This document shows, piece after piece, positions 11,421 through 56,578 of a stretch of 64,000 nt of DNA. Both the position numbers and the translations under genes were made by a program. The notes beneath the pieces are model-generated. The model saw only the letters and a program-made list of their open reading frames with translations, made no database searches and had not been told where the DNA came from. The stretch lies in IMG/VR virus record IMGVR_UViG_2751186034_000001, positions 1-64,000 of that record; one strand, 5' to 3'. The first letter of the stretch is position 1. Every line of letters starts with the position of its first letter. This DNA comes from a virus. Lineage: Duplodnaviria > Caudoviricetes.

Positions 11421-11765
11421 TTACTGCTGATCGGGCCGCGAAGTCGGCGTCTGGTTGACCCCGATACGCTTGGCCGCCCAGCGTTCATAAAGACCGATGG
11501 CTACGTCGGCCCCCGCCATGGCGGTGAGGCAGCCGATGGCGCCGGCAGTCCAGATCGACATGCCGGCGGCGTAACACAGCATCAGGGCCGAAACCCCGCA
11601 CACCATGCACGCGCCAGACCTCAAGGCCAGGCGCCGGATCAACGACCAACCGCGGGCGCCCTCCTTGTCGGCGCGCCACATTTCGCCGGATACCCCGCCG
11701 ATCAAGGCCAGTGCAATCACCAGCCAGATAGGCATTTCCGCTAACGCTTGCTGCTCGTTTGTCAT
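11421..11765 (-). CDS. Holin (tailocin)
   Basis: Three hydrophobic segments; first gene of the operon. Confidence 0.88.
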   Translation of the reverse strand: MTNEQQALAEMPIWLVIALALIGGVSGEMWRADKEGARGWSLIRRLALRSGACMVCGVSALMLCYAAGMSIWTAGAIGCLTAMAGADVAIGLYERWAAKRIGVNQTPTSRPDQQ

Positions 11766-11839: not shown

Positions 11840-11864
11840 AAAAAGCCCGGTTGCCCGGGCTTTT
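11840..11864 (-). terminator. Intrinsic terminator upstream of the holin gene
   Basis: GCCCGG-GCAA-CCGGGC followed by T5 on the minus strand. Confidence 0.7.
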
Positions 11865-12196
11865 CAGTAATGCTGTCCTCGAACCTTCGGCGCTACTGGC
11901 GCGGTACGGTTCTTTCCTCAATGTTTTTCCGACCACGATCCCTGTCTGCCGGATAACTGCTTCTGGTGCTTTACGCTGCACACCCGGGTCAGTTGCCAAC
12001 CCTCTGAACCGTTAAGGCCGGTTCATCGCTGCCTGTTTCTTGTAAAGCGGTGTCACTAAAGAGCGTCGGCATCCTTGCCGGTATTGCCTGCCATCCCTGC
12101 CATCGCTGTGATGGCGTCCTTGCCGATGTTGCTTGCCTTCCTTGTCATCCTTGGCAGCATCCTTGCCGCCTCCACCAGGCCTTGTTGGCTGGCTTG
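11840..12196 (-). ncRNA. Putative structured leader / small RNA of the tailocin operon
   Basis: Bounded by a promoter and a terminator; six CA(A/G)GGA motifs, boxA-like CGCTCTTTA (12065-12057), several hairpins; no convincing CDS. Confidence 0.55.
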
Positions 12197-12202
12197 AGAT
12201 GA

Positions 12203-12231
12203 AGAATATGCATGTATGCATATACAGTCAA
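12203..12231 (-). promoter_or_regulatory. Sigma70 promoter of the tailocin operon
   Basis: TTGACT-N17-TATTCT. Confidence 0.75.
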
Positions 12232-12275
12232 TGCGTAAATGCATTTATTTTCACTCAGGATATGCTCATGTGCAT
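12208..12275. promoter_or_regulatory. Three ATGC-N6-GCAT operators
   Basis: Copies at 12208-12221, 12231-12244 and 12262-12275 overlap or flank the promoter. Confidence 0.7.
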
Positions 12276-12318
12276 TTTTGGCTTGGCGATTCAAGGGGTT
12301 ACTGGCTTTTGGCAGGCG

Positions 12319-12346
12319 AAAAAAAACCCGCTGCTTGGCGGGTTTT
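12319..12346 (-). terminator. Terminator of the repressor gene
   Basis: CCCGC..GCGGG stem followed by T8. Confidence 0.75.
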
Positions 12347-12362
12347 GTCCTACTGAATTGGG

Positions 12363-13097
12363 TTAACGCGCGTACATGCCCCACCAGAACACATGGCCGA
12401 GGATACTGATCTGCTCGTCCTGGATTTCCTGGAAACTGTAGTCCTCGTCCGGATGCTCGTCGCGATTGAAGCTGCGCAGACGAATCCGGGATGGCAGGCG
12501 ATAGAGCTGTTTGACCCGCAATTGGCCATTGTGATTGATGGCATACAGATCGCCATCGACGATATCGCCGATGCCGCTCTTGCCCGCATTGACCCCGACG
12601 GTTGCGCCATCGCGCAGCACTGGCAACATGCTGTTGCCGCGCACCGTCACACACTTGGCCTGGTCGAATTGCACACCATTGTGTCGCAAGCTGCGCTTTC
12701 CAAAACGCAGGCTGGCTTTCTCGCTTTCCTCGATGACGAATCTTCCTGATCCAGCAGCCAATTCAACCTCGCGCAGAAAGGGGATCGACACCTCATCGTC
12801 ATTGATAGGGGTGTCGTCGTCCCACAGGCTTATGTCCTTGAGTTCCGAATGCATCGGGTCGCGCCCGTCGTCCCGCGCAGCGCCTACGGCCACGCGCCCG
12901 CGCAGTTGGTCGGTGCTCACGCCAAAGTATTCGGCAATGCGGGAGATATGCTTGTCAGACGGATCGACAATCTTGCCGCTGAGGATCCGAGACAGCGTGG
13001 ACTGAGGCACACCGGTACGCCGGTGAAGCTCCGTTGGGGAGATCCGGTCGCGGTCCAGCAATTCTCTTAATACGATAGAAACGTTGCGTTTTTGCAT
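12363..13097 (-). CDS. PrtR-like XRE/S24 autocleaving repressor of the tailocin
   Basis: N-terminal HTH, LAAG cleavage site, GNSM and VKQL catalytic motifs. Confidence 0.92.
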   Translation of the reverse strand: MQKRNVSIVLRELLDRDRISPTELHRRTGVPQSTLSRILSGKIVDPSDKHISRIAEYFGVSTDQLRGRVAVGAARDDGRDPMHSELKDISLWDDDTPINDDEVSIPFLREVELAAGSGRFVIEESEKASLRFGKRSLRHNGVQFDQAKCVTVRGNSMLPVLRDGATVGVNAGKSGIGDIVDGDLYAINHNGQLRVKQLYRLPSRIRLRSFNRDEHPDEDYSFQEIQDEQISILGHVFWWGMYAR

Positions 13098-13133
13098 AAC
13101 GGCGATAGTGCCGGGTGTTTTGCAGCTTGGCAA

Positions 13134-56069: not shown

Positions 56070-56119
56070 TAACCCATCGCAGCGACTTACGAGGGACTGC
56101 GAAGGGCCTCACAGCTCGC

Positions 56120-56131
56120 CGCTCTTTAACA
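56120..56131 (+). promoter_or_regulatory. boxA antitermination element
   Basis: CGCTCTTTAACA. Confidence 0.75.
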
Positions 56132-56392
56132 GTTCAAGACCTTCGCAGATCGATCCCCGGCAACGGGCACAGCGCGAACAATAAATTCGATCTCCACGCC
56201 AGCTCTGGAACTGGCCGTGCTCACCAGATGTGAGTACGCGAAACCACGCAAGCCAGCCAGGAAGAACACCGGACACGAAATGTGTGACCTGGCCAGAGAT
56301 ATGAATCCGGCGATGCGCGTGGTGGAGACAACAGATTTCCTCGATGACCTTGGCGACAGGGTCATCCGGAAAATCAAACGGAGAATAAAGCG

Positions 56393-56578
56393 ATGAGCAA
56401 TCAATTCGATGTGAAGGTGAAGTCGAGCCACGAAGCCTACGTCGTCACTTGCAAAGACGCAGGAGAACGCAACTCCGTAACAACAGAGTGCGTTCGGGAT
56501 GGTCATGAGCACCAGCCTGCGACCGAAGCCGACCAATCGCTCCAGCGTGTTGATTATTTGGACTGGAATCCAGCATGA
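56393..56578 (+). CDS. First early-left protein, hypothetical
   Basis: GGAG RBS. Confidence 0.6.
   Translation: MSNQFDVKVKSSHEAYVVTCKDAGERNSVTTECVRDGHEHQPATEADQSLQRVDYLDWNPA

Follow-up and report, generated by a model that had tools for sequence, protein, structure and literature searches.

The leader of a PrtR/SOS-controlled Pseudomonas tailocin operon is a modular non-coding RNA with a boxA, a pseudoknotted core shared with temperate phages and an array of Rsm-consensus motifs

A non-coding leader between repressor and holin

What lets RNA polymerase into a lethal tailocin operon whose first gene, a holin, lies behind an intrinsic terminator? The question matters because tailocin production kills the producer, so that its control decides the cost-benefit trade-off, which has been studied in plant-associated Pseudomonas and in plasmid-host conflict. 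The locus lies within a 64,000-nt stretch of viral DNA (IMG/VR record IMGVR_UViG_2751186034_000001), here called the window. On the minus strand it reads, in order, a PrtR-like repressor gene (12363-13133; HTH plus S24 peptidase; Pfam Peptidase_S24 at 1e-18, HTH_3), the terminator of that gene, a promoter, the 357-nt leader stretch and the holin as gene 1 of the tailocin operon (11421-11765; Pfam Phage_holin_3_5 at 3.9e-53). P. rhodesiae DSM 14020 has a holin with 100% identity to it, and downstream of the holin follow P2-type baseplate and fibre genes, a presumed sheath gene, and the tube, tape-measure and lysis genes; the presumed sheath gene has no Pfam match and is named from its position. 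The earlier note on this DNA had remarked on the lack of an activator gene, and the ORF listing of the locus indeed shows no activator ORF between prtR and holin, and no ORF of any kind between leader and holin.

The sigma-70 promoter predicted at 12231-12203 (minus; TTGACT-17-TATTCT, start predicted at ~12196) is the one from which the earlier note had started. It is nearly invariant in 53 loci and 80-97% identical in other subgroups. Abutting its -35 hexamer is the PrtR operator ATAAATGCATTTAC (12248-12235, minus), a 14-mer that also occurs at the PrtR1 ChIP-seq summit in P. protegens CHA0, 391 bp upstream of hol (PMC12066065). In CHA0, a 516-bp intergenic reporter was still inducible by mitomycin C over ~3 logs when prtR1 and all tailocin and prophage genes were absent, from which its authors infer further regulation besides PrtR1 (PMC12066065).

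The stretch 12196-11840 is the untranslated, non-coding leader of this PrtR/SOS-controlled operon, ~350 nt long. It is modular, consisting of a GGA array, a boxA, a pseudoknotted core RNA and a terminator, all on the minus strand; the elements for which the earlier note gave coordinates are found there. We compared holin neighbourhoods from 80 Pseudomonas species (L001-L080). Array, boxA and terminator are retained across 53 species of the P. fluorescens subgroup, within which positions 12035-11895 are almost invariant and the sequence just outside the leader varies. In the other subgroups (L054-L080), the promoter, the boxA, the 3' 200 nt and the terminator are kept at 83-92% identity. The earlier note was thus right to see here an RNA leader that carries Rsm-consensus sites, a boxA and a terminator; the leader is non-coding and its boxA is conserved. 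The Rfam search that it proposed returned no family for the leader, at the gathering score or at E up to 10, and we found no published description of the leader RNA or of its Rsm sites in the literature, nor a CLIP or RIP data set that covers this locus.

Folding bears out the terminator that had been placed just before the holin (11864-11840, minus; GCCCGG-GCAA-CCGGGC plus U5; -21.6 kcal/mol, z = -5.3). It overlaps a near-invariant AU-rich linker, GCAUUACUGAAAAG (11873-11860, minus), at the 5' edge of which RNA-seq contigs stop. Four RNA-seq runs from two studies gave contigs of 305-334 nt that cover only 11871/11876 to 12178/12187, two of them running into Illumina adapters at 12180 and 11871. 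No contig joins the holin or prtR; the contigs give neither strand nor level, and the lack of contig cover over holin and promoter is not evidence of absence. These data suggest that the leader exists as a discrete RNA whose end lies at the terminator or slightly upstream of it and which is not joined to the holin, in line with the ~355-nt transcript foreseen. Since the contigs stop before the holin, read-through appears low in the sampled RNA-seq; this speaks against antitermination that is constitutive and put-like, and in favor of a conditional step.

Upstream of the linker lies an accessory domain (11912-11881, minus) in which P5 (GAACC/GGUUC) encloses P6 (GCGC-CAGUA-GCGC). In P5, four of the five pairs persist although both partners change, the fifth (192:215) being unsupported, and P6 has one compensatory change. 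The covariation that the earlier note had proposed to look for was found in P5 and P6 as well as in the core and in a hairpin of the array. A long-range pairing of the 3' half given by RNAalifold was dropped for local hairpins with covariation support.

The boxA and the pseudoknotted core RNA

The site called boxA-like by the earlier note, CGCUCUUUA in the RNA (CGCTCTTTA; 12065-12057, minus), contains an exact boxA core, and the final UAG of the site doubles as the stop of a 34-codon ORF. The exact 8-mer GCTCTTTA occurs twice in the window, the second copy standing in the leader of a lambdoid prophage, ~55-60 nt downstream of its presumed PL/OL. That presumed PL leader (56072-56400, plus) contains a boxA, CGCTCTTTAACAG (56120-56132), and a hairpin with a GCAA loop. 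The boxA is conserved in tailocin leaders: among 186 copies of the core RNA compared, the core is preceded by exact GCTCTTTA in 131 of 136 copies of the tailocin type and in 24 of 50 of the phage type. A terminator follows the core in 133/136 tailocin-type copies, and 42/50 phage-type copies have no adjacent terminator.

Behind the boxA, what had been described as further hairpins are present, and they turn out to belong to a phage-derived pseudoknotted RNA family. The core RNA (12036-11929, minus; ~110 nt) scores 153.7 bits over the full length of our covariance model R1. Covariation supports P2 (12025-12019 with 12011-12005); Pa, a GGGU/ACCC helix (12002-11999 with 11989-11986) that forms a pseudoknot with P3 (AACUG/CAGUU, 11994-11990 with 11959-11955); P3b (11984-11980 with 11969-11965), with the conserved loop GCAGCGUAAA; and P4 (11952-11945 with 11938-11929), with the loop CAGGGA. 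Besides P2, P3, P3b, P4 and the GCAGCGUAAA loop, the window's copy carries the conserved GGCAGCGAU segment of the model. The core has no Rfam match. It is present in the tailocin leaders of all but 2 of the 80 species, and on the alignments it is the ancestral and most conserved part of the leader, shared with temperate Pseudomonas phages. BLAST against phage records found it in the lambdoid phage PseuP_224, where cI is followed by the RNA and then by the early-left genes, and in the P. syringae phages Orimi01 and Orisa, where it lies between divergent early operons, ahead of the ERF recombinase operon; Aurca01 and Medea1 gave weaker matches. The phage copies stand directly after a repressor-controlled early promoter, often behind a boxA.

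The structure rests on an alignment of 47 sequences drawn from phages and from 119 IMG/VR contigs with an invariant 21-mer in common. In it, pairing reaches 99% in P2, P3b, P4 and the GGGU/ACCC helix that is pseudoknotted with P3. Compensatory changes occur at nine pairs, a value that 0/500 shuffles reach. Examined as a local helix, P4 shows two A-U pairs that change to G-C, with three states seen. When distant homologues are included, 17 of 25 pairs are compensated, with 98.5% pairing, in an alignment that was fitted to the model and leans towards it. A P1 helix (CAGC/GUUG) was given up, since Orimi01 disrupts it but has compensatory changes in GGGU/ACCC. Model R1 had matches in 11 of 151 sampled family genomes, ten of which carry the RNA. 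Three genomes hold distant copies (27-51 bits) with P2, P3 and P4 largely or fully re-coded, the re-coding being full in the two 50-bit copies (L210 and L211), and these distant copies keep RGCAGCGA and most of the loop GCAGCGU(AAA). Coding by the core is excluded by stop-codon and indel variation. An ATG at 12027 was ruled out as a start by TAA, TGA or 2-nt indels among species (the variants TAA, TGA and CAA and the 2-nt indels sit in a hairpin loop), and a 58-aa ORF at 11999-11823 by non-triplet indels, near 11880, that break the frame.

Several features of individual copies were seen along the way. The eleventh model match (L213:1501-1628, minus; 23.9 bits) is a type I-F CRISPR spacer, CAAGGTGTGCAGCGTAAAGCACCGAAATGGAA, between GTTCACTGCCGTGCAGGCAGCTTAGAAA repeats downstream of csy3/csy4; since its sequence corresponds to the conserved loop region in RNA of the L210 type, a host CRISPR array evidently targets the core element. 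The RNA in L210 (287-661, minus) is followed by a small GerE/LuxR-type HTH protein (Pfam GerE). In PseuP_224 (L201:4236-4470, plus) an unannotated ORF directly after the RNA reads like a GerE/LuxR-type protein, and ~13 similar ORFs with an N-terminal sequence in common occur in IMG/VR phage contigs, mostly as the first gene after the RNA. In Orimi01 (L202:4140-4290, plus) the RNA is followed by a long stem with a GGTTCGAATCCC inside it that resembles a tRNA T-arm; ARAGORN detects neither a tRNA nor a tmRNA at this place. Among the tailocin loci, that of P. karstica (L059:2800-2850) has four CAAGGAAGA units of 9 nt in tandem, and its core RNA and terminator are both gone. P. cyclaminis (L027:2860-2935) has lost the core alone and keeps a weakened terminator (-15.5 kcal/mol), so that its holin is presumably expressed without the core.

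The relation of the core to the boxA is best seen in three phage leaders (L089, L084 and L082) that have their 5' leader and boxA in common with the lambdoid prophage of the window; the boxA is exact in L089 and L084 and has one mismatch in L082, and L089 and the prophage also have the sequence before the first gene in common. In the prophage of the window, a small, boxB-like GCAA hairpin takes the place that the core RNA has in these three phages. Because homologous phage leaders carry either the hairpin or the core, the core occupies the boxB slot of a nut-like site. No GNRA-type boxB hairpin was found behind the boxA of the tailocin leader. In the best reading of these comparisons, core RNA and boxA are inherited from temperate Pseudomonas phages.

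We therefore favor, with a probability of about one half, the reading that this is an N-independent antitermination or attenuation leader onto which, in the fluorescens subgroup, an Rsm-binding platform has been grafted. Antitermination, the use of Nus factors and Rsm binding are what we infer here, and the leader probably decides whether the lethal operon gets read. The boxA and pseudoknotted core (~110-160 nt) would sit where lambda nutL or HK022 putL would and, most likely, make polymerase termination-resistant together with host NusB/NusE, without N or Q. The terminator before the holin would halt each polymerase that lacks this modification, and because it stops unmodified polymerases, the suicidal operon would be read only from the PrtR-controlled promoter. 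A modified polymerase would likewise bypass an internal terminator-like hairpin, ACCGCGAAAGCGGT plus T7 (6695-6682, minus), which folding places between the tail-fibre genes and the presumed sheath (then tube) genes; no promoter-like site is predicted downstream of it. A conserved RNA in place of N and boxB would explain how terminators are passed in phages and tailocins that have neither N nor Q. Against the favored reading stands the finding that about half of the phage copies are without a boxA and most are without an adjacent terminator. The locus of P. cyclaminis, which kept a terminator after losing the core, also counts against it.

The same facts could be read as a conditional attenuator. 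In such a riboswitch-like leader, polymerase would terminate by default and undergo no processive modification, and the pseudoknotted RNA, on sensing a ligand or a protein of the host that may be connected with DNA damage, would inactivate the terminator next to it. A structured RNA with conserved unpaired RGCAGCGA and the GCAGCGUAAA loop does lie directly before the terminator, the RNA-seq contigs do end before the holin, and mitomycin C induction in CHA0 does persist without PrtR1 and the cluster genes. However, a LexA-like promoter box could account for the PrtR-independent induction, the alignment reveals no conserved alternative pairing between core and terminator, the stems of the terminator vary freely, and the great majority of phage copies have no adjacent terminator. 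We consider this reading unlikely.

The GGA array

Between the transcription start and the boxA lie six CANGGANG motifs (12165-12070, minus), the number that the earlier note had counted: CARGGAHG has six matches in these 96 nt versus 15 in the other ~128 kb (both strands). The two GGA sites that had been assigned to clean hairpin loops fold as predicted. Hairpin H1 (GGCGGC-AAGGAU-GCUGCC; 12170-12153, minus) presents its GGA in a hexaloop closed by C-G and also holds an AUG behind GGAGG, and H6 (CGGC-AAGGAU-GCCG; 12080-12067, minus) ends 1 nt upstream of the boxA. Between motifs 3 and 5 stands a further hairpin, GCCAUC-ACAGC-GAUGGC (12115-12099, minus), with a variable loop and a U-A to C-G compensation in three species. 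Four units, namely H1, H6 and two more hairpins, read GGC-ARGGAY-GCC in most species. An ANGGAN hexaloop closed by C-G is the high-affinity form in RsmE-RNA structures, and several motifs of the array have it, presenting GGA in loops as Rsm sponge RNAs do.

The array is a lineage-specific insertion of ~110 nt, which by species comparison belongs to the P. fluorescens subgroup only. Leaders L001-L053 have four to seven motifs each at fixed spacing, L025 with two being the exception; the array is also present in L059, despite its number outside that range, and absent from the leaders of 25 other species (L054-L080). The expected conservation of the GGA loops is therefore seen across the fluorescens subgroup and does not extend to those 25 species. 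Within the array, GGA positions are 98.95% identical versus 89.5% at positions outside the motifs, and the variable positions of the 8-mer are 3 and 7, that is, the two N of CANGGANG. As far as the alignment goes, conservation follows the Rsm consensus; the case for motif-specific selection rests on a modest contrast, since the whole array is 90-99% conserved. The array is most likely, judging by its motifs and loops, a binding platform for the CsrA-family proteins RsmA/E/I.

The likeness to RsmX/Y/Z that had been proposed holds for the multiple GGA sites in hexaloops and not for descent: the PrrB_RsmZ model gives 17.3 bits against a cut-off of 44, and the GacA box TGTAAG-N6-CTTACA has no match at 12200-12362 with up to three mismatches. 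On the same strand as its tailocin leader, and 4.4 kb away from it, the near-identical P. rhodesiae genome has a genuine rsmZ (G001:C33:336752-336885, L218; 119.7 bits). Derivation of the array from this neighbor was ruled out, the likeness being limited to the GGA motifs. In leaders L055 and L063-L077 an extra covarying hairpin separates P5 from the terminator. Its loop contains ACAGGAU, and GAAGGAAGG and GAAGGAC come after it; this may represent an independent gain of GGA sites. Over non-fluorescens leaders, ANGGA is weakly enriched (2.9 versus 1.7 expected).

Might the array have nothing to do with Rsm proteins? It could have arisen by tandem-repeat expansion of a GGCAAGGAYGCC unit and have been retained because it serves as a structural spacer, binds Hfq or gives Rho no place to load on the untranslated leader. 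The 9-nt tandem repeat of P. karstica, a unit number that differs between species and a G/A-rich, C-poor composition would all fit such an origin. Against it stand the position-by-position match to the Rsm consensus, the C-G closing pair, the ANGGAN hexaloop and the retention of the motifs in 53 species, and we think this explanation rather improbable. Still less probable is a role in trans, in which the terminated leader would be an SOS-induced sponge for RsmA/E/I and the phage RNA would merely stabilize it. An apparently discrete and stable RNA that has six consensus sites, presents three or four of these in hexaloops and weakly resembles the PrrB_RsmZ model is what a sponge would look like; yet most subgroups keep the leader without the array, the promoter region is without a GacA box, a genuine rsmZ lies close by, and a trans effect would have little time to matter because induced cells lyse.

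Finally, the array contains the 34-codon frame that ends in the boxA. Its AUG (12163-12161) lies in H1, 8 nt behind an SD-like GGAGG. Of 49 species, 36 keep the frame open as far as this stop, or 37 if one in-frame 3-nt insertion is counted, and in 11 it is broken. As a coding unit this small ORF is unconserved. The variable columns of the array fall 10/14/13 over the codon positions, with no third-position bias, and the variants are 7 synonymous versus 40 non-synonymous, no better than in the other two frames. With no codon periodicity and a broken frame in these species, the conservation of the leader does not follow a coding pattern, which the earlier note had named as an outcome that would tell against it, and the coding reading of the ORF was rejected. 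That its translation governs boxA access or termination is thus very improbable, the SD-like sequence and the frame open in most species notwithstanding, as a T-poor sequence remains open through composition alone.

Returning to the leader as an antitermination or attenuation device with a grafted Rsm platform, the array would have been inserted in the fluorescens subgroup between the transcription start and the boxA, and three or four of its motifs, as AAGGAY hexaloops on GC stems, would serve RsmA/E/I. Because H6 ends so close to the boxA, a bound Rsm protein could block the loading of Nus factors; such a block would couple read-through to Gac/Rsm status, and abundant terminated leader could also titrate Rsm proteins. 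In P. fluorescens SBW25, loss of gacS ameliorates the fitness cost of SOS-driven tailocin expression, and the tailocin holin mediates plasmid cost (PMC8544851); however, Hall et al. ascribe the gacS effect mainly to PFLU4242, which counts against a Gac link via the leader. Neither the CHA0 nor the SBW25 study takes the leader RNA into account.

One tentative extension, which we would not expect to hold in full, is a two-input RNA gate: SOS cleavage of PrtR would start transcription, assembly on boxA and phage RNA would terminator-proof the polymerase, and array-bound Rsm protein would veto this when Gac is off. Through an Rsm-type array, SOS-induced lysis would be connected in a concrete way with Gac/Rsm signalling. 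The gate, if true, would be the first case in which a CsrA-family protein controls antitermination that is processive and independent of protein N, and it would tie population-density signalling directly to tailocin release.

Comparison with known systems

Each element of the proposed scheme has a counterpart elsewhere, and the leader differs from all of them. Like HK022 putL/putR, it is a cis-acting structured RNA directly after a repressor-controlled early promoter, with no N- or Q-type gene and with terminators downstream. The described structure sets the two apart, put being two stem-loops of ~70 nt without boxA, whereas the leader has four to six helices, a pseudoknot and a boxA. With lambda nutL/nutR (boxA and boxB, acting with N and NusA/B/E/G) it has in common an exact boxA core in the same place, just downstream of a repressor-controlled promoter, and the homologous phage leaders that carry either a GNRA hairpin or the core RNA behind the boxA. 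Unlike nut, however, it has no boxB and no N-like ORF, its core RNA is ten times the size of boxB, and that core is conserved in tailocins, which have no early genes.

The control of alpBCDE by AlpR and AlpA in P. aeruginosa (PMC7969949) also joins an SOS-cleaved LexA-like repressor to a lysis operon guarded through leader terminators. There the AlpA protein, loaded at the promoter, antiterminates, whereas the tailocin locus has no AlpA- or Q-like gene. RsmX/RsmY/RsmZ (Rfam clan CL00106) resemble the array in repeating the CANGGANG motif and in placing several copies in hexaloops atop short GC stems, but the leader scores too low to be a homolog, its promoter is PrtR/SOS-controlled rather than GacA-dependent, and its array forms the 5' portion of an operon leader instead of a gene of its own. 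The logic that we propose for the array resembles that of the E. coli pgaA leader, where a CsrA-family protein on a 5' leader alters elongation or termination; pgaA acts via Rho loading, whereas the target proposed for the array would be the assembly of Nus factors on the boxA.
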